In this document: piece by piece, positions 1-4,386 of the stretch
Layout: every line of letters begins with the position of its first letter
How positions within the stretch are numbered: the stretch's first letter is position 1
Assembly: GCA_963797095.1 (NCBI GenBank)
Contig: CAWCNY010000002.1
Span: 1,280,001 to 1,344,000, forward strand
Source of the DNA: an uncultured Chloroflexia bacterium
Lineage (GTDB): Bacteria; Chloroflexota; Chloroflexia; QHBQ01; JADMIH01
Length of the DNA: 64,000 nucleotides
Direction of reading: 5' to 3'
Notes under the pieces: generated by a model
What the model saw: the letters and a program-made list of their open reading frames with translations, nothing else
Told to the model about the DNA's origin: nothing
The model's database searches: none
Translations under genes and position numbers: made by a program

Positions 1-111
1 ACTCGAACCCTCGACCCGGCCGTTAGTAGCGGTAACCATCAGCCACCGGCCCCCGTGGGGCAAATACCGGTAATGGCTTTAAACCTGCTCTGCCATCTGA
101 GCTACGTCCCC
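1..111 (-). tRNA. tRNA-like gene (anticodon ACT after removing a 51-nt insert at 33-83), 3' end cut off by the window edge
   Basis: Minus strand: GGGGACG-TA-GCTC AGATGGCA GAGC-A-GG|51 nt|CCG CTACTAA CGGCC-GGGTC-GAGGG TTCGAGT. Removing the insert restores a perfect GGCCG/CGGCC anticodon stem. Confidence 0.75.
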
Positions 112-182
112 TGGGTTTGGACGAAAGACGAAGGACGTAGGACGATGGTTGTCGTCCAGGGTCTTGTCTAGCGTCCGGTTGT

Positions 183-428
183 CAGGAAGGAAATAGTCAA
201 TATTTGCTTTCAGGAATTGCCCGGCAGTGCCGGACCATTGCATTAATGGGTAACCTGAATGCGCCGTCCCAGATCCTTCACCGATGTTCGATGGTGGCCC
301 TCTATCGCGCCGAGCGCCGTAGGCACGTCCGGGCCTACGGACGGGAATTGAACCCGCGTGTTACCTGCGTACTCAACTACGACCTGCCGCCATGAGATAG
401 CCGGTGCCGACCGGCCGACCATCTTCTG
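183..428 (-). ncRNA. Structured RNA with a circularly permuted tRNA domain (YrlA/Y RNA-like candidate)
   Basis: Minus-strand order: T arm GCGGG TTCAATT CCCGT (357-341), closed acceptor-like hairpin CCGTAGGC-8 nt-GCCTACGG (340-317), D-like arm GCTC..GAGG (315-299). The ends can pair (GATGGTCGG with TTGACTATT). Boundaries approximate. Confidence 0.55.
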
Positions 429-434
429 ATAATT

Positions 435-534
435 GGAGGAAAGCAAGCAGTCAAAGCACGCGTTGGGCCTGCGGACGCGTTACCCGCAGTTATGGTTGCG
501 AATGATACCCCATTGGCAACGTACCGCTTTCTCC
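435..534 (-). ncRNA. Putative ~100-nt structured RNA, or the 5' domain of the 183-428 RNA
   Basis: Terminal pairing GGAG-AAAGC/GCTTT-C-CTCC; internal hairpins GTTGC..GCAAC and CTGCGG..CCGCAG; TTGACT near the 3' end; no credible ORF. Confidence 0.4.
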
Positions 535-543
535 TGTATGTAT

Positions 544-678
544 TGGGGATGGCAGGATTCGAACCTGCAAGAGCTTGTGCTCACTCGTTTTCAAGACGAT
601 AACCCTCAGCCTTCGGCCCCCATGGGGCAAGGTATGGTGACGGTGTATTAGCGCGTTTGCCATTTCCGCCACATCCCC
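544..678 (-). tRNA. tRNA with TGA (Ser) anticodon and Leu-like body, interrupted by a 51-nt insert (600-650)
   Basis: GGGGATG-TG-GCGG AAATGGCAAA CGC-G-C|51 nt|TCGT CTTGAAA ACGAG-long variable arm-GCAGG TTCGAAT CCTGC-CATCCCC-A. Confidence 0.8.
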
Positions 679-691
679 ACGATTATTGTGT

Positions 692-809
692 TGGAGCGCC
701 CGATAAGAATCGAACTTACGGTAACCATCAATCCGGCGGCCCTGGAGGTTCTTGAGGTCCTGGAGGGCAAAGATTGGAGACGGGTGCTCTCCAATCGAGC
801 GTCGGGCGC
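692..809 (-). ncRNA. Anticodon-less tRNA-like RNA with encoded CCA; anticodon arm replaced by a Y-RNA-like hairpin
   Basis: GCGCCCG/CGGGCGC-T-CCA acceptor, GCTC..GAGC D arm, GTAAG TTCGATT CTTAT T arm. Between D and T arms: CCGT..CAATCT TTGCCCT-loop-AGGGCCG CC GGATTG ATGG TTA. Confidence 0.75.
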
Positions 810-810
810 A

Positions 811-887
811 TGGTGCTTGGGGTGGGGGTTGAACCCACGACCTCCTGCTTTTCAGACAAGCGCTGCTACCAACTGAGCTACCCAAGC
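811..887 (-). tRNA. tRNA-Phe(GAA)
   Basis: Cloverleaf, loop CTGAAAA, encoded CCA. Confidence 0.93.
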
Positions 888-992
888 GGGCAAACATGAA
901 ACGTGAGGACGAAGGATTAGATTACGAGTGACGAATGACGAATGACGAGTGATTACGCAATACGCAGTACGCAATAGGTCCTGTCTCACGAT

Positions 993-1067
993 TGGTCTGG
1001 ATGGAGAGGATCGAACTCCCGATCTCTAGCGCCCAAGGCTAGCGTGTTCCCGCTACACTACACCCAG
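993..1067 (-). tRNA. tRNA-Pro(TGG)
   Basis: Cloverleaf, loop CTTGGGC, C1:G72, A73, CCA. Confidence 0.92.
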
Positions 1068-1107
1068 ATATGGTTATATCTCGTCCATCGTTCTTCACCG
1101 TTCGTTG

Positions 1108-1183
1108 TGGCGGCCCGTAGGGGAGTTGAACCCCTCCTTTCGACATTGACAGTGTCGCGTCTCGTCCACTCGACCAACGGGCC
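1108..1183 (-). tRNA. tRNA-Asp(GTC)
   Basis: Cloverleaf, loop CTGTCAA, G73, CCA. Confidence 0.92.
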
Positions 1184-1256
1184 AGTTCGATTTTGGATTT
1201 TAGATTGGGGATTTTGGATTGAAGTCGTAGCAATTCCGAAATCTGAAATCCGAAAT

Positions 1257-1332
1257 TGGTACAGGGGGGCAGATTCGAACTGCCGGCCACTCGCGTCCGA
1301 GGCGAGTACGCTTACCACTGCGCTACCCCTGT
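1257..1332 (-). tRNA. tRNA-Pro(CGG), atypical A1:U72
   Basis: ACAGGGG/CCCCTGT-A-CCA acceptor, loop CTCGGAC. Confidence 0.88.
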
Positions 1333-1351
1333 ATGCATGATTTATTTCTTG

Positions 1352-1422
1352 TTCCGGGGCAAGGATTCGAACCTCGCTCTGCCGGTTCAAAGCCGGCGAT
1401 CTTACCGCTGGACGACCCCGGA
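1352..1422 (-). tRNA. tRNA-Gln(TTG)
   Basis: TCCGGGG/CCCCGGA acceptor, loop CTTTGAA; CCA not encoded. Confidence 0.9.
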
Positions 1423-1485
1423 AGGATGATGATGACGGGGACGATGCAAGAACGTAAGCGTTGCCGACTATCGGCTACTTCCTTT

Positions 1486-1563
1486 TGGTGAGCGTTGGAG
1501 GACTTGAACCTCCGGCCTCCAGGTTCGCGGCCTGGTGCTCTGATTCCACTGAGCTAAACGCTC
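1486..1563 (-). tRNA. tRNA-Arg(GCG), C33
   Basis: CCAGG CCGCGAA CCTGG anticodon arm, full cloverleaf, CCA. Confidence 0.88.
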
Positions 1564-1597
1564 GTGTTGTCTGTGCTCTTGTCCATGGCCCACCGGG

Positions 1598-1668
1598 CAG
1601 TGAGGGAGGGAGTCGAACCCCCATGGACCGATTAACAGTCGGTTATCTTACCTTTAGATGACCTCACT
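1598..1668 (-). tRNA. tRNA-Asn(GTT)
   Basis: AGTGAGG/CCTCACT-G acceptor, loop CTGTTAA; CCA not encoded. Confidence 0.88.
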
Positions 1669-1686
1669 ATTGTCTTGTTATGCGGG

Positions 1687-1772
1687 CGGGTCGGGTGGGA
1701 TTTGAACCCACTTGCGTCCAAGACGCACTTGTTTTACAGACAGGCCCGGCTACCCGTATCCGGCTCCGACCC
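1687..1772 (-). tRNA. tRNA-Tyr(GTA), G73
   Basis: Loop CTGTAAA, long variable arm TGCGTC-TTG-GACGCA, T arm GTGGG TTCAAAT CCCAC. Confidence 0.87.
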
Positions 1773-1858
1773 AAGTTGTTGCGGTTGAAAGATGATTATT
1801 GGCGAGTGACGAGTGACGAATGACGAGTTCTGGAAATCGGCAATCTAAAGTCCGCGAT

Positions 1859-1934
1859 TGGTGGACAGCCAGGGATTTGAACCCCGAACATTCTCGGTGT
1901 AGGCGAGACGCTCCATCCGTTGAGCTAGCCGTCC
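1859..1934 (-). tRNA. tRNA-Val(TAC), C33
   Basis: TCTCG CCTACAC CGAGA, cloverleaf, CCA. Confidence 0.88.
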
Positions 1935-1947
1935 ATTGGAAGGGCGC

Positions 1948-2023
1948 TGGTAGGGTGTGCGGGGATCGAACCCGCGATCTACTCTTTGAAAGAGAGTTAT
2001 CCTGACCACTAGACGAACACCCC
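1948..2023 (-). tRNA. tRNA-Glu(TTC)
   Basis: Loop CTTTCAA, cloverleaf, CCA. Confidence 0.92.
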
Positions 2024-2034
2024 ACAGGGTTGAT

Positions 2035-2112
2035 TGGTAGCGCATGAGAGATTCGAACTCCCGGTCTCCAGGCTGAGAACCTGGCGTCCTGGGCCAGCTA
2101 GACGAATGCGCC
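2035..2112 (-). tRNA. tRNA-Glu(CTC)
   Basis: Loop TTCTCAG, cloverleaf, CCA. Confidence 0.92.
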
Positions 2113-2192
2113 GTGTTGTTACGGACGAAGGATGGCGGTTTGCCACCTGCTGTTCTTTCGTCGTCCGTCTTTAGTATTTTGTCCGCAGAAAG

Positions 2193-2264
2193 AGGTGCCG
2201 AGGGGAATTGAACCCCTGGTTAGCCGGGTTGCAGCCGGCCGCCTTACCACTTGGCTACGGCACC
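2193..2264 (-). tRNA. tRNA-Cys(GCA)
   Basis: Loop CTGCAAC, U73. Confidence 0.92.
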
Positions 2265-2271
2265 GCTTGGG

Positions 2272-2347
2272 TGGTGGAGCAGGGGAGATTCGAACTCCCA
2301 TCTTCCTCGTTGCAGGCGAGACACTCTGCCATTTGAGCTACTGTCCC
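2272..2347 (-). tRNA. tRNA-Ala(TGC), C33
   Basis: G3:U70, A73, loop CCTGCAA, CCA. Confidence 0.9.
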
Positions 2348-2418
2348 GTTTTGGTAGTCGGTAGTCGGTAGGCGGTAGTCAGATGGTATTTTACTGATAA
2401 CTGGCTGCCGAGCTTTTG

Positions 2419-2492
2419 TTTCGCGGAGCGGATTCGAACCGCTGGTCCCCTGGGTCACAGTCAGGTGCTTTTGCCGCTAAGCTACCGCGAAC
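2419..2492 (-). tRNA. tRNA-His(GTG), G-1 with A73
   Basis: Loop CTGTGAC; G-TTCGCGG/CCGCGAA-A. Confidence 0.86.
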
Positions 2493-2573
2493 ATGTGGTT
2501 AGACGATAGACGATGGACGAAAGTAAAGGTGAGCTTTCGTCGTCCGTTGTTCGTTTTTAGTCTGATGCACCGG

Positions 2574-2644
2574 TTCCGTGTCAAGGATTCGAACCTCGTT
2601 CTGCTGGTTCAGAGCCAACTGTCCTACCGTTGGACGAACACGGA
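2574..2644 (-). tRNA. tRNA-Gln(CTG)
   Basis: TCCGTGT/ACACGGA acceptor, loop CTCTGAA. Confidence 0.9.
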
Positions 2645-2747
2645 ATATGATGGATCCTTGGATACTGCGTAGTGCTTATTTCGTATTGCATGTCGGTGCG
2701 AGATTATTCCGCACTCTATACTCCGCATTCCGCATTTGAGTGTGGGG

Positions 2748-2821
2748 CGCACCCAGAGAGATTCGAACTCCCGGCCCGCTGGTTCGAAGCCAGCTGCTCT
2801 GTTCCACTGAGCTATGGGTGC
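2748..2821 (-). tRNA. tRNA-Arg(TCG)
   Basis: Loop CTTCGAA, cloverleaf. Confidence 0.92.
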
Positions 2822-2872
2822 AGGATAGTGCGTATTGCGTACTGCTTATCGCTTACTTCGCATATACAGATT

Positions 2873-2948
2873 TGGTTGCGGAGGAGGGACTTGAACCCTC
2901 GATCTGGTCATTATGAGCGACCCGCTCTTGCCGCTGAGCTACTCCGCA
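2873..2948 (-). tRNA. tRNA-Met(CAT) (Met/fMet/Ile2 not resolved)
   Basis: Loop CTCATAA, TGCGGAG/CTCCGCA-A-CCA. Confidence 0.9.
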
Positions 2949-3013
2949 ATGGTGGGTGAGAGACGCAGGATGAAGGATGAAGGATGAAGGATGAAGGATT
3001 AAGGATGATAGCG

Positions 3014-3090
3014 TGGTACCGGAGGAGAGATTCGAACTCCCAACGTCTGCGGTCTGAGCGCAGTGTGTCTACCAGTTGCACCACTCCGGC
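3014..3090 (-). tRNA. tRNA-Leu(CAG) with short variable loop
   Basis: CTGCG CTCAGAC CGCAG, then only ACGTT before the T arm; A73, CCA. Confidence 0.87.
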
Positions 3091-3189
3091 ATATCTTAGT
3101 GACAAATGACGAGTGACGAGTGACAAGTGACTGGATAAGCAGTAAGCACTAAGCAATAGGTCACGTATCACGTATCACGTTTCACGGGT

Positions 3190-3264
3190 TGGAGCGGTAG
3201 TAGGGATTCGAACCCTCATCTCCTCCATGGCGCGGAGGTGCTCTGCCGGTTGAGCGACTACCAC
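3190..3264 (-). tRNA. tRNA-Gly(GCC), G32/C33
   Basis: CCTCC GCGCCAT GGAGG; U73, CCA. Confidence 0.86.
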
Positions 3265-3305
3265 ATTTTTGCGGATTGGCGTTTTGGGGGTTTCTTCCGC
3301 AAGGG

Positions 3306-3377
3306 CACAAGCGGTAGGATTTGAACCCACATCCCACAGTTTTGGAGACTGGTGCTCTCCCATTGAGCTACGCTTGT
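3306..3377 (-). tRNA. tRNA-Trp(CCA)
   Basis: Loop CTCCAAA, G73. Confidence 0.9.
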
Positions 3378-3614
3378 ATGCAGCGAGCAGACCAGGCATG
3401 CCTTCACGCTTGGGCTTTACGATATGTGCGGCCCGCGCTGGACTCCAGGCACACCTGGCGTGTCTGCTCACTCTTTTTATTCGCGATCCATCTTCTACTG
3501 TTAAGGTGCACGGTCTGCCGTGGACTGCCGGCGCTTTCTTTGTTTTATTGTCCTATTCGGGTTATTTACTTCTATGTCGCCCGTCACGGCTTTCCGTCTG
3601 CATCGACAGATGCA

Positions 3615-3690
3615 TGGTGCCCCCGGCAGGGTTCGAACCTGCGCCTCACCGATTAAGAGTCGGTTACTCTTCCTGCTGAGTTACAGAGGC
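3615..3690 (-). tRNA. tRNA-Lys(CTT), first tRNA of the array
   Basis: Loop CTCTTAA, cloverleaf, CCA. Confidence 0.92.
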
Positions 3691-3775
3691 TTGCATATTG
3701 CGCTGTTAATTGAGAGAGCCGCCTGGCTCTTTCGCCGGGCGGCCCTGGTGAACATATATGTACATGCACCTTGAG

Positions 3776-4057
3776 CTATCCGGCGATTACCTCCCAACCA
3801 AACGTGCGATTAAGGGCCTGGGTCAGATCCAGGGCCAATGCTGCTGCTGGGCATAGGGAGGCGGCTATACAATTGTCATAGACAGGTTGTGATAATTCGG
3901 CTTCACACATACACGTCGCTTCACTGATTCTTGGCGTCTTCCTTGAGCGTAAACGCTTCCAGGTGTGATCGGCGTGTGTAGAGAGAGGCCAGCGCGCGTC
4001 GTGTGACGGCTCACGCAACTCATCTCTGTATGTTTGGCCGATCCAGATCGATTTCAT
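3776..4057 (-). CDS. Short hypothetical or leader ORF upstream of the tRNA array
   Basis: 93-aa ORF with ATG after AAGGCAAAGCC, followed by a GC hairpin at ~3714-3744; no recognisable domain. Confidence 0.35.
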   Translation of the reverse strand: MKSIWIGQTYRDELREPSHDARWPLSTHADHTWKRLRSRKTPRISEATCMCEAELSQPVYDNCIAASLCPAAALALDLTQALNRTFGWEVIAG

Positions 4058-4078
4058 GGCTTTGCCTTGCTAACTAAA

Positions 4079-4104
4079 GAGCGGCTCCTGTTCGGGGCCG
4101 CTCC
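4079..4104 (-). terminator. Putative terminator/attenuator hairpin
   Basis: Minus strand GAGCGGCCCC GAACA GGAGCCGCTC followed by TTTAG. Confidence 0.5.
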
Positions 4105-4140
4105 AGCTTTTGTGGCTTGCATTTTGTGAGGCAAATTACC

Positions 4141-4386
4141 TCACATTACGTTTTGCTTACCTCTGGAGCGGTCGCCCACCCTCATCCACGTATCTCGCGG
4201 GAGTTGGGGTCTGGCGATACCTTCGATATTCAGATAAAGATTCCATTCGTGCTGTGAATAGCTCCTGGCGATTGATGGCGATATGCTCGCAAAACAATTC
4301 GTCTGGACAGACAACCACAACCCATTCTCATAAGAAGGGGCTTGTGTGCTATTACATTGTCTGGCGCTCATGGTCACGGGGAGCAA
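4141..4386 (-). CDS. Short hypothetical or leader ORF
   Basis: 81-aa ORF; AAAGGAG lies near possible GTG/ATG starts; no recognisable domain. Confidence 0.3.
   Translation of the reverse strand: MLPVTMSARQCNSTQAPSYENGLWLSVQTNCFASISPSIARSYSQHEWNLYLNIEGIARPQLPRDTWMRVGDRSRGKQNVM

Follow-up and report, generated by a model that had tools for sequence, protein, structure and literature searches.

A tRNA-shaped RNA with a predicted Ro-type helix in place of its anticodon arm: a probable Y RNA in native tRNA order

The likeness of bacterial Y RNAs to tRNA still awaits an explanation. The question is raised here by a 118-nucleotide, tRNA-shaped RNA, which we call RNA T, whose gene lies between an array of tRNA genes and rsr, the gene for a Ro60 orthologue. 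The window analysed is a stretch of 64,000 nucleotides of bacterial DNA (C2:1280001-1344000, where C2 is the contig), and the searches described below covered the whole genome of 6.0 Mb in 8 contigs. The original prediction, made from the letters of the sequence, saw a tRNA without an anticodon loop and offered several roles for it: a non-decoding aminoacyl carrier, a decoy for anticodon nucleases or for toxins that attack CCA ends, or a YrlA RNA that is not permuted. Our analysis favours the last of these. RNA T is probably a Y RNA of the YrlA class that retains native tRNA order, an open acceptor and a CCA end, a reading to which we assign a probability of roughly 60% on the basis of sequence.

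RNA T is read from the minus strand, and its position p corresponds to window coordinate 810-p (Table 1). Its parts appear in the order acceptor, D arm, Ro arm, UUACC, T arm, acceptor, U73 and CCA, and the anatomy first claimed for it is borne out. The acceptor GCGCCCG/CGGGCGC is intact with seven of seven Watson-Crick pairs, as are U73 and CCA (nucleotides 115 and 116-118 of the RNA), both the D arm and the T arm are present (nucleotides 10-24 and 91-107), and an extended hairpin does contain a bulged C at nucleotide 72 and a 20-nucleotide segment (nucleotides 47-66) that had been described as its loop. This hairpin belongs to a single 59-nucleotide arm, located within nucleotides 26-85 between the D and T arms, which occupies the place of the anticodon arm. 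The long arm is composed of P1 (CCGUC/GAUGG, 5 bp), P2 (UCC/GGA, 3 bp) and then the Ro-type helix, whose pairs are U41.G73, G42-C71, C43-G70, C44-G69, C45-G68 and U46-A67, with C72 left bulged. The apical segment that caps this helix has 20 nucleotides in RNA T versus 2-4 nucleotides in its paralogues. At the position of the variable loop, UUACC (nucleotides 86-90) runs directly into the T stem. The claim that there is no anticodon loop stands with one nuance: the anticodon stem lacks its 3ʹ strand, but nucleotides 26-37 still comprise a 5ʹ stem strand and the heptamer CUCCAAU. This relic is reused in the long arm, where nucleotides 27-31 supply the 5ʹ strand of P1 and nucleotides 32-34 supply that of P2.

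Table 1. Features of RNA T and its surroundings (window coordinates, or contig coordinates where C2 is given; nt, nucleotides of RNA T)
Feature	Position	Strand	Basis
RNA T, whole tRNA-shaped RNA, 118 nt	692..809	-	sequence read; structure scored; module match C2:1280720-1280770
Acceptor 5ʹ strand GCGCCCG, nt 1-7	803..809	-	7/7 Watson-Crick with window 696-702
D arm GCUC/GAUUGGA/GAGC, GG doublet present, nt 10-24	786..800	-	sequence and scored structure
Relic of 5ʹ anticodon-stem strand and loop-like heptamer CUCCAAU, nt 26-37	773..784	-	alignment to tRNA-Trp(CCA); scored structure
Ro-type helix, 5ʹ strand UUGCCCU, nt 40-46	764..770	-	module pattern; scored structure
Apical segment, 20 nt, possible 3-bp AGG/CCU stem, nt 47-66	744..763	-	caps Ro-type helix
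Ro-type helix, 3ʹ strand AGGGCCGC, nt 67-74; bulged C at nt 72 (window 738)	736..743	-	pattern and scored structure
3ʹ strands of P2 (GGA) and P1 (GAUGG), then UUACC ('YUAY' element), nt 76-90	720..734	-	pattern; alignment A1; scored structure
T arm GUAAG/UUCGAUU/CUUAU, nt 91-107	703..719	-	sequence and scored structure; T stem 5/5
Acceptor 3ʹ strand CGGGCGC, nt 108-114	696..702	-	pairs at only 4/7 with the next unit's 5ʹ acceptor strand
U73 (nt 115) and encoded CCA (nt 116-118)	692..695	-	sequence
tRNA array directly upstream of RNA T, 21 genes	811..3690	-	ARAGORN 21 genes, Rfam 20
Unit E2, tRNA-Ser(UGA)-like scaffold, module between D arm and anticodon arm	541..678	-	R1 88.1 bits
Candidate Y RNA of canonical topology, terminal stem 5ʹ GCGGUACG ... 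UUGACUGC 3ʹ	444..531	-	7 terminal pairs; minimum-energy fold
Unit E5, tRNA-shaped, cut at window start (full: C2:1279985-1280111)	1..111	-	R1 110.1 bits
rsr, 553-aa protein	C2:1276984-1278642	-	TROVE E 1.6e-47; Ro60 vWA E 6.2e-64

The 5ʹ end of RNA T, G1, lies one base past the CCA of the neighbouring tRNA-Phe (window 811-887). Its acceptor end does carry the Gly-like letters G1:C72, C2:G71, G3:C70 and U73 in tRNA positions; we take this set to be identity elements for GlyRS. Two contacts of the tRNA core are non-canonical, A8/G14 and A15/C48, whereas tRNAs and the paralogues of RNA T have U8/A14 and a standard 15:48 pair. ARAGORN makes no tRNA call at 692-809, and the Rfam tRNA model (RF00005) has no match there, either at its gathering cut-off or at E values up to 10.

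The surroundings of RNA T are rich in tRNA-related genes. In the array directly upstream, 13 of the 21 tRNAs end in an encoded CCA. The rsr gene is located 2.05 kb downstream of RNA T (C2:1280692-1280809) on the same strand. Beyond it come a gene for an HNH protein, four further tRNA genes and an intein-interrupted gene for an RtcB ligase. A Mutator-family transposase is also present in the locus, and the tmRNA of this genome is found away from it (C6:160403-160749). The long arm contains a sequence module that we expressed as a regular expression, TTGCC-loop-GGGCCG-(3-12 nt)-TGANGR-TTAHC, and searched for on both strands of all 8 contigs. The pattern has five matches in the entire genome, all on the minus strand at C2:1279245-1280770 and within 1.6 kb of each other. 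These belong to RNA T and four more tRNA-shaped units, and the five reside 0.6-2.1 kb upstream of rsr. The array of 21 tRNA genes shares one stretch with rsr, rtcB and about a dozen genes of Y-RNA-like kind, which makes the locus a compact model in which to study how tRNAs are damaged, repaired or surveyed. A possible permuted unit at window 215-425 on the minus strand was rejected, as its fold (z = -0.59) gives no energy support for structure. Promoters and terminators were scanned for in window 1-4300 with a sigma-70-type consensus only, and the outcome, no minus-strand site, is hence not firm. Among public sequencing runs, none of RNA is listed with the locus; two DNA runs, both from one study, are listed with shares of 0.09 and 0.07 of the sampled words.

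The module is not peculiar to this genome. We surveyed 41 genomes, comprising its own and 40 relatives, and found pattern matches in 14 of them; a reversed pattern used as a control gave 0 matches in the same 41 genomes. A script that looked around each match for a T loop and T stem together with a complementary 7-nucleotide acceptor placed the module inside a tRNA scaffold in 13 genomes. Matches on contig C84 of G008 and in G035 have no such scaffold around them and appear to be chance-like. The rsr gene was found in 19 of the 41 genomes, among them 12 of the 13 with a scaffolded module. The one exception, G036, is a genome estimated to be 73% complete, and is the single module-bearing member of the 22 genomes that lack rsr; seven genomes carry rsr with no pattern match. 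In 11 of the 12 module-bearing relatives, a unit is found on the contig and strand of rsr, at 0.2-4.3 kb upstream of it. Three genomes (G021, G022 and G032) are flagged as unpublished, and when these are left out the scaffolded module occurs in 10 of 38 genomes, rsr in 9 of those 10, and a unit adjoining rsr in 8 of 9 relatives.

A broader scan of one genome per species shows in which phyla such units are present, not how frequent they are; among the 120 matches listed, most are chance matches with long gaps and about 20 are real tRNA-embedded units. Representatives among the matches listed come from Chloroflexia, Thermomicrobiales, Armatimonadota, Polyangiaceae and Deinococcaceae, and from the cyanobacteria Moorena, Cyanothece, Prochloraceae and Paraprochloron, the last with three units in tandem. 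The closest units among the matches listed are from Chloroflexia or Chloroflexota records, and the genome of the window therefore probably belongs to the same group.

Alignment A1 brings together 34 units from several phyla, namely 35 units with a 7/7 acceptor, minus the near-duplicates G022b and G009a, plus unit E7 of our own genome (6/7). With the structure written from a single reference row, 89.1% of the cells are paired versus 75.3% in shuffled alignments, and 0 of 500 shuffles reach the observed value. Nineteen pairs are altered on both sides, and sliding the partners by 1-3 columns reduces pairing to 37-55%. Where the search pattern itself dictates a column, its invariance proves nothing, and the invariance or near-invariance of T40, T41, G42, C43 and C44 is partly forced in this manner. 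The informative helices are the acceptor, with covariation in seven of seven pairs, the T stem, the 2-bp helix that follows the D arm and, in part, P1. The base after GCCG forms a U-A pair in 15 rows and a U-G pair in 8, and is unpaired in 11 (n = 34).

Other models were of less use for defining the family. A covariance model, R1, was abandoned as a counting tool when it proved unable to separate the units from ordinary tRNAs; its score for RNA T, 48.6 bits, falls in the middle of the range for ordinary tRNAs, and RNA T itself is in the seed. When the units were scanned with Rfam, only the tRNA model gave matches, and only on paralogues, two of which score 45.1 and 41.8 bits; no self-cleaving or intron family was matched. 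Deinococcus_Y_RNA has no match on RNA T and one weak match on a neighbouring unit (22.7 bits versus a cut-off of 80), which was set aside together with other matches far under their cut-offs, to permuted tmRNA (14.1 bits) and RAGATH-5 (21 bits). Also rejected was a hammerhead-like reading of CUGAUG, since the A and GAAA elements required in such a core are missing and Rfam is silent on it.

Within this family, RNA T occupies a peculiar position. It has the 7-bp acceptor, D arm, module and T arm by which a tRNA-order Y-RNA unit is defined, and it carries the family module letters GGGCCG and UGA-G-UUA-C. Most units of A1 keep three further elements: a helix of 2 bp where the anticodon stem begins, then a linker and, after UUAYC, a 3-bp hairpin with a 7-nucleotide CU-NNN-AA loop. 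Judged by these sequences, the 2 + 3 bp would add up to the normal 5 bp of an anticodon stem, as though its 5ʹ strand had received the module as an insertion. The 'anticodon' triplet in the loop varies freely on near-identical bodies (AUU, ACU, GUU, UUU, GUG and UCU), which argues that these units do not decode. RNA T has no linker and no small hairpin, and its P1 begins right after the D arm. Among the units of A1, this short architecture is common to RNA T and L070 only, the latter being a unit from a Capsulimonadaceae record among the matches listed, with no encoded CCA. A pattern for the short form matches 3 of 401 genomes of the phylum, one of them by chance, and a short-form unit in G379, a genome from another Chloroflexota family, ends in an encoded CCA. 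Metagenomes contribute at least five short-form units of 109 nucleotides, each with a 7/7 acceptor and an encoded CCA, from a scan in which 5 of the 120 matches listed contain the module. None of L070, the G379 unit and the five metagenome units (from the matches listed) is an orthologue of RNA T, and a BLAST search of 25 genomes of the same genus revealed no orthologue; its sole match (E 0.002) is situated in coding-like sequence and is attributed to chance. RNA T is the least conserved member of its family, and its value lies more in the family than in the gene.

How well RNA T agrees with YrlA can be judged against published descriptions of that class. In Salmonella, Mycobacterium and many other bacteria, YrlA is described as lying, like RNA T, a few kb upstream of the gene for a Ro60 orthologue on the same strand (PMC4201824, 10.1101/312249). 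A criterion given for YrlA is a position within about 4 kb of this gene on the same strand (PMC4201824), and the distance of RNA T from rsr, both on the minus strand, lies inside that limit. As these sources portray YrlA, it has in common with RNA T a GNCG-type motif in the 5ʹ strand of the Ro element, a YUAY element, D and T arms and an acceptor-like stem, and in both the Ro-binding stem stands in the place of the anticodon stem. The YrlA motif GNCGAAN0-1G is noted to resemble GGUCCGA, a strand that Xenopus Ro60 contacts and that forms, together with 3ʹ residues, a bulged helix, and YUAY is reported to be conserved (PMC4201824). The 3ʹ strand AGGGCCGC of RNA T is similar to both GGUCCGA and the YrlA motif; in the module at large, the 3ʹ strand (GGGCCG, then UGAYGG, then UUAYC) agrees with the published account, and UUGCCC on the 5ʹ side provides its partner. 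RNA T contains UUAC at nucleotides 86-89 and a predicted bulged helix of the Ro60 type, GGGC[C]G with UUGCCC, in which C72 is the bulged base. Its motif, GCCGCCGG (GCCGCC), retains GNCG and has CC in place of AA, and so departs from GNCGAAN0-1G; paralogue E2 (GCCGAAGG) and the rsr leader (GCCGAAAG) both agree with the full motif. Both strands of the bulged helix are recognisable in RNA T, but only the 5ʹ strand is in the YrlA RNAs of Salmonella and M. smegmatis as depicted in PMC4201824. Relative to the YrlA seed published there, the D stem GCUC/GAGC is the same, whereas the T stem GUAAG/CUUAU differs from the near-invariant GCGGG/CCCGY. The processed halves of M. smegmatis YrlA, as described by Chen et al. 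(2014), form a 7-bp acceptor stem, as does RNA T.

The major difference is the order of the parts. YrlA is described as a circularly permuted tRNA that ends in the Ro stem, with its acceptor closed by a loop and no free CCA (10.1101/312249). RNA T reverses this arrangement, as its Ro stem is closed by a loop, its acceptor is open and its CCA is encoded. Only the un-permuted reading works for RNA T, because its acceptor strands form seven of seven pairs in cis and four of seven with the next unit; its upstream neighbour is an ordinary tRNA-Phe. The M. smegmatis YrlA is reported to be made from a permuted precursor and to end as two RNA pieces, whereas RNA T would be one chain with CCA in the gene. 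Among the paralogues, trans acceptor pairing in four adjacent unit pairs amounts to 7, 7, 7 and 6 of 7, and for such tandem units pairing judged from sequence cannot tell the permuted from the un-permuted reading. Cyanobacterial rows of the YrlA seed contain GGCCGAA..UGAGGGUUAUC, a T arm, a long 'acceptor' region, a D arm and ..UUGCC (PMC4201824), an order that can be read as the 3ʹ portion of a unit like those described here, followed across a spacer by the next unit's 5ʹ portion. Dimeric tRNA transcripts have been proposed as the origin of YrlA (10.1101/312249). No account of an un-permuted form whose acceptor is open emerged from the literature searched; two further papers, by Burroughs and Aravind (2016) and by Sim and Wolin (2018), may bear on its novelty. 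The suggestion of an un-permuted YrlA has thus gained support from the bulged-C Ro-type helix, the YUAY element, the position of rsr 2.05 kb downstream and the family of units with the same layout. Nothing was found in favour of a decoy for anticodon nucleases, because RNA T presents no free anticodon loop.

Other tRNA-like RNAs resemble RNA T in part. Yrn1 of Deinococcus radiodurans is described as Rsr-bound and co-transcribed with a tRNA, and has a tRNA-like T arm and both strands of the Ro helix (PMC4201824). Unlike RNA T, it is depicted with the Ro stem in the acceptor position and a short anticodon-like arm between its D and T elements (PMC4201824). The b7a-tRNA of Burroughs and Aravind (2016) is cited as a predicted tRNA-like RNA found next to RtcB and occasionally next to Rsr (10.1101/312249). 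No Band-7/SPFH gene is present by RNA T; the genome has three Band_7 matches, the nearest of which (C2:599300) is about 680 kb away. Like RNA T, tmRNA and other tRNA mimics with CCA ends combine an acceptor/T-arm module and a free CCA with a non-decoding lower half, but RNA T has no mRNA-like part and keeps a full D arm.

Folding calculations give a mixed picture. The minimum-energy fold of RNA T computed by RNAfold has -45.5 kcal/mol (z = -3.27), and 1 of 200 shuffled sequences folds as well. The acceptor and the Ro hairpin survive in this fold. However, GAUUGGAGA, from the D loop and stem, enters a perfect 9-bp GAUUGGAGA/UCUCCAAUC hairpin that destroys the D arm, and the T region is refolded. 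When the stems of the acceptor, D arm and T arm are imposed, the best fold reaches -40.0 kcal/mol, and the structure drawn by homology has -35.7 kcal/mol; nearest-neighbour energies leave out tertiary contacts and modifications, and the choice between these folds is undecided by energy alone. In such models the lower-energy alternative is a real point against a tRNA-like fold, or a hint that RNA T may adopt an alternative conformation.

Another challenge concerns the origin of RNA T. When parts of the RNA were aligned to all 71 tRNAs that ARAGORN identifies in the genome, nucleotides 10-36 proved to be identical to the tRNA-Trp(CCA) of the array at 24 of 27 positions, with a score of 39 versus 19 for the next tRNA. 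The matching stretch takes in the D arm, the anticodon stem's 5ʹ strand and, from the loop, CUCCAA. RNA T thus still holds the 5ʹ half of a conventional anticodon arm, with the Ro hairpin and a UGAUGG strand in place of the 3ʹ half; the UGAUGG strand pairs with the old anticodon-stem strand. The original prediction named homologues with a conventional anticodon arm that was simply disrupted as a result that would count against it. This applies in part, since the nearest tRNA relative, tRNA-Trp(CCA), shows that such an arm survives in RNA T in its 5ʹ half and has been replaced in its 3ʹ half. RNA T could be a recent chimera, with nucleotides 10-36 that look as if they were copied from tRNA-Trp.

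Taken further, this origin leads to the first rival explanation, in which RNA T is a non-functional, decaying chimera: a tRNA-Trp-like gene whose anticodon arm was deprived of its 3ʹ half when the gene recombined with a Y-RNA unit next to it, and which is transcribed only through its position in the array. In addition to the likeness to tRNA-Trp, this proposal would accommodate the non-canonical positions 8, 14 and 15:48, the lack of an orthologue in 25 genomes of the genus, and the silence of an Rfam tRNA model that nevertheless scores two paralogues. The transposase and the many paralogous units in the locus could also have provided the means to recombine. However, every helix of the family fold is intact in RNA T (acceptor 7/7, T stem 5/5, P1 of 5 bp, P2 of 3 bp and the bulged-C Ro helix), and the conserved letters of the module agree with the family consensus. 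The CCA and the one-base gap to tRNA-Phe have likewise been retained, and the same short architecture is conserved elsewhere, in L070, G379 and the metagenome units. We regard a decaying chimera as rather unlikely, though as the likeliest of the rival explanations.

A second alternative is that the free CCA end serves the main role of RNA T, either as a charged but non-decoding aminoacyl carrier or as bait for toxins that attack acceptor ends, with Rsr binding being secondary or absent. The acceptor letters listed above are in keeping with this proposal, and the tRNA-Gly of the array likewise ends in U73-CCA. These letters may suffice for GlyRS; against the proposal, anticodon determinants are missing from RNA T. 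Moreover, acceptor identity is not a family trait, because paralogues and relatives have other acceptors and other discriminators (mostly A73), often with no encoded CCA. In favour of the proposal, the M. smegmatis YrlA, once cut by RNase P, is reported to acquire a CCA end, and possible aminoacylation was brought up by the authors (PMC4201824). However, the neighbourhood of RNA T points to no use for a charged carrier, and a principal role for the CCA end seems improbable to us.

The least credible proposal, that the module is an intron-like insert whose excision allows the nearby RtcB to rejoin the halves into a working tRNA, draws on the presence of rtcB in the locus and on the 2-bp and 3-bp helices that in most family members add up to a 5-bp stem with a 7-nucleotide CU-NNN-AA loop, but it is very unlikely for RNA T because the missing 3ʹ anticodon-stem strand means that removal of the module restores no anticodon arm, while free variation of the 'anticodon' triplet among relatives argues against decoding and no Rfam self-cleaving or intron family matches the units.

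If RNA T is a native-order Y RNA, as we favour, it would be transcribed together with the tRNA array and released much like a tRNA. RNase P would cleave at G1, one base after the CCA of tRNA-Phe, and the 3ʹ end would be trimmed back to the encoded CCA. The RNA could then adopt a tRNA-like L, in which the elongated 'anticodon' arm would offer its bulged-C helix to Rsr, the Ro60 orthologue encoded 2 kb downstream. As in other Y RNAs, the tRNA body might then tether Rsr to a partner that binds tRNA or processes RNA, such as PNPase or RtcB, or it might act as a nuclease-resistant tRNA-like end. What the sequences show is the anatomy of RNA T, the restriction of its module to one locus, the linkage to rsr in relatives and covariation in the helices of the family; transcription, processing and Rsr binding are parts of the proposed mechanism. 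Several observations speak against the Y-RNA reading, namely the lack of an orthologue, the GCCGCC motif, the A8/G14 and A15/C48 contacts, the T-stem mismatch to the seed, the silence of Rfam, the alternative fold and the copy of tRNA-Trp.

The attraction of RNA T is that it represents a self-contained native-order unit in a tRNA array, with a 5ʹ end ready for processing and an encoded CCA. It allows a bench test of whether RNase P, the CCA enzyme, synthetases or EF-Tu act on Y RNAs of this kind, and it suggests a simpler origin for Y RNAs, from a tRNA whose anticodon arm gained a Ro site. A more ambitious generalization, which we consider doubtful, would hold that native-order Y RNAs with an open acceptor and often a CCA are widespread and probably ancestral, that they undergo maturation of the tRNA kind and are open to charging or to binding by tRNA-handling proteins, and that permuted YrlA is a derived reading of tandem units, the 'very long acceptor stems' of cyanobacteria being two adjacent un-permuted units. 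Such maturation and handling would couple Rsr, and perhaps RtcB, directly to tRNA and the translation machinery. A further observation in favour of the Y-RNA reading concerns rsr itself: in 7 of the 10 genomes examined, the hairpin of the module sits on its Shine-Dalgarno sequence.

In most tRNA-shaped units that carry the Ro module (alignment A1, 34 units; e.g. L014:1455-1579), the D arm is followed by a 2-bp helix, and the UUAYC segment by a 3-bp hairpin. Together, these elements equal an anticodon stem of 5 bp closed by a 7-nt loop, CU-NNN-AA, and the Ro module therefore looks like an insert in the 5' strand of that stem. The NNN triplet varies freely among close relatives. In T, the 118-nt tRNA-shaped RNA of the window, the segment GAUUGGAGA, made up of the D loop plus the 3' strand of the D stem, exhibits perfect 9-bp complementarity to the 5' strands of long-arm helices P1 and P2 (UCUCCAAUC), which creates an alternative fold of higher predicted stability. 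A weaker form of this complementarity (AUGGC/GCCAU) is present in the paralogous unit E5.

A nearby stretch, preceded by GGUCGUAG, carries its elements in the same permuted order as published YrlA RNAs, and folding provides no energy support for this stretch (z = -0.59). The cyanobacterial YrlA seed rows in Supplementary text 2 of PMC4201824, when compared with the three tandem units of record L122, could be interpreted as spanning the point where two un-permuted units in tandem meet. Such a junction would explain the 'very long acceptor stems' of the published cyanobacterial YrlAs.

Six candidate Y RNAs of canonical topology also were found. G(C/U)GGUACG opens each of them, and the closing strand, which contains UUGAC, pairs with this start to form 6-9 terminal pairs per candidate in the minimum-energy folds. 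Several carry a T-arm-like hairpin after GGGUUAYC, and the 5' end of some immediately follows the 3' terminus of one of the tRNA-shaped units.

The leader of rsr, the Ro60-orthologue gene, includes a Ro-module hairpin whose 3' side is directly followed by AAAGGAG and the start codon. This layout occurs in 7 of the 10 genomes examined, and in the other three (G030, G032 and G037) a variant hairpin, with GGGCCG at its end, is combined with a Shine-Dalgarno sequence (genomes G021, G022 and G032 are unpublished). The hairpin looks like a site through which Rsr controls its own translation.

Features located in the analysis (C2, contig CAWCNY010000002.1; L002, stretch of the same genome, L002:10642 = C2:1278642)
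Feature	Position	Strand	Basis or detail
Permuted-order stretch	window about 290-400	-	T arm GCGGG/UUCAAUU/CCCGU; closed 7-bp stem-loop CCGUAGG..CCUACGG; D-like arm
Complementary strands, alternative fold of T	window 786-800 and 772-780	-	sequence
Six candidate Y RNAs	C2:1278824-1280531; first, window 444-531	-	sequence and minimum-energy folds
rsr leader hairpin, UUGCCCC-loop-GGGGCCG	L002:10642-10675 = C2:1278642-1278675, beyond window	-	sequence
Mutator-family transposase, between rsr and rtcB	L002:7739-8770	+	
HNH protein, between rsr and rtcB	L002:5738-6307	-	
RtcB, split by intein	L002:1416-3935	-	RtcB, E 4.7e-91; Intein_splicing, E 5.1e-22
tRNA-like match to covariance model R1	C2:1273568-1273653, beyond window	-	weak, 28.5 bits; long variable arm; encoded CCA
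tRNA-Ile (UAU), downstream of tRNA array	C2:1273416-1273490		ARAGORN

ARAGORN called no tRNA at the R1 match. The tRNAs of the array (window 811-3690, minus strand) are unusual in their 3' ends: CCA is encoded in 13 of 21, and the rest end in CCC or other letters. Short tandem heptamer-like repeats make up the array spacers (e.g. window 905-960, 1195-1255 and 2350-2385).
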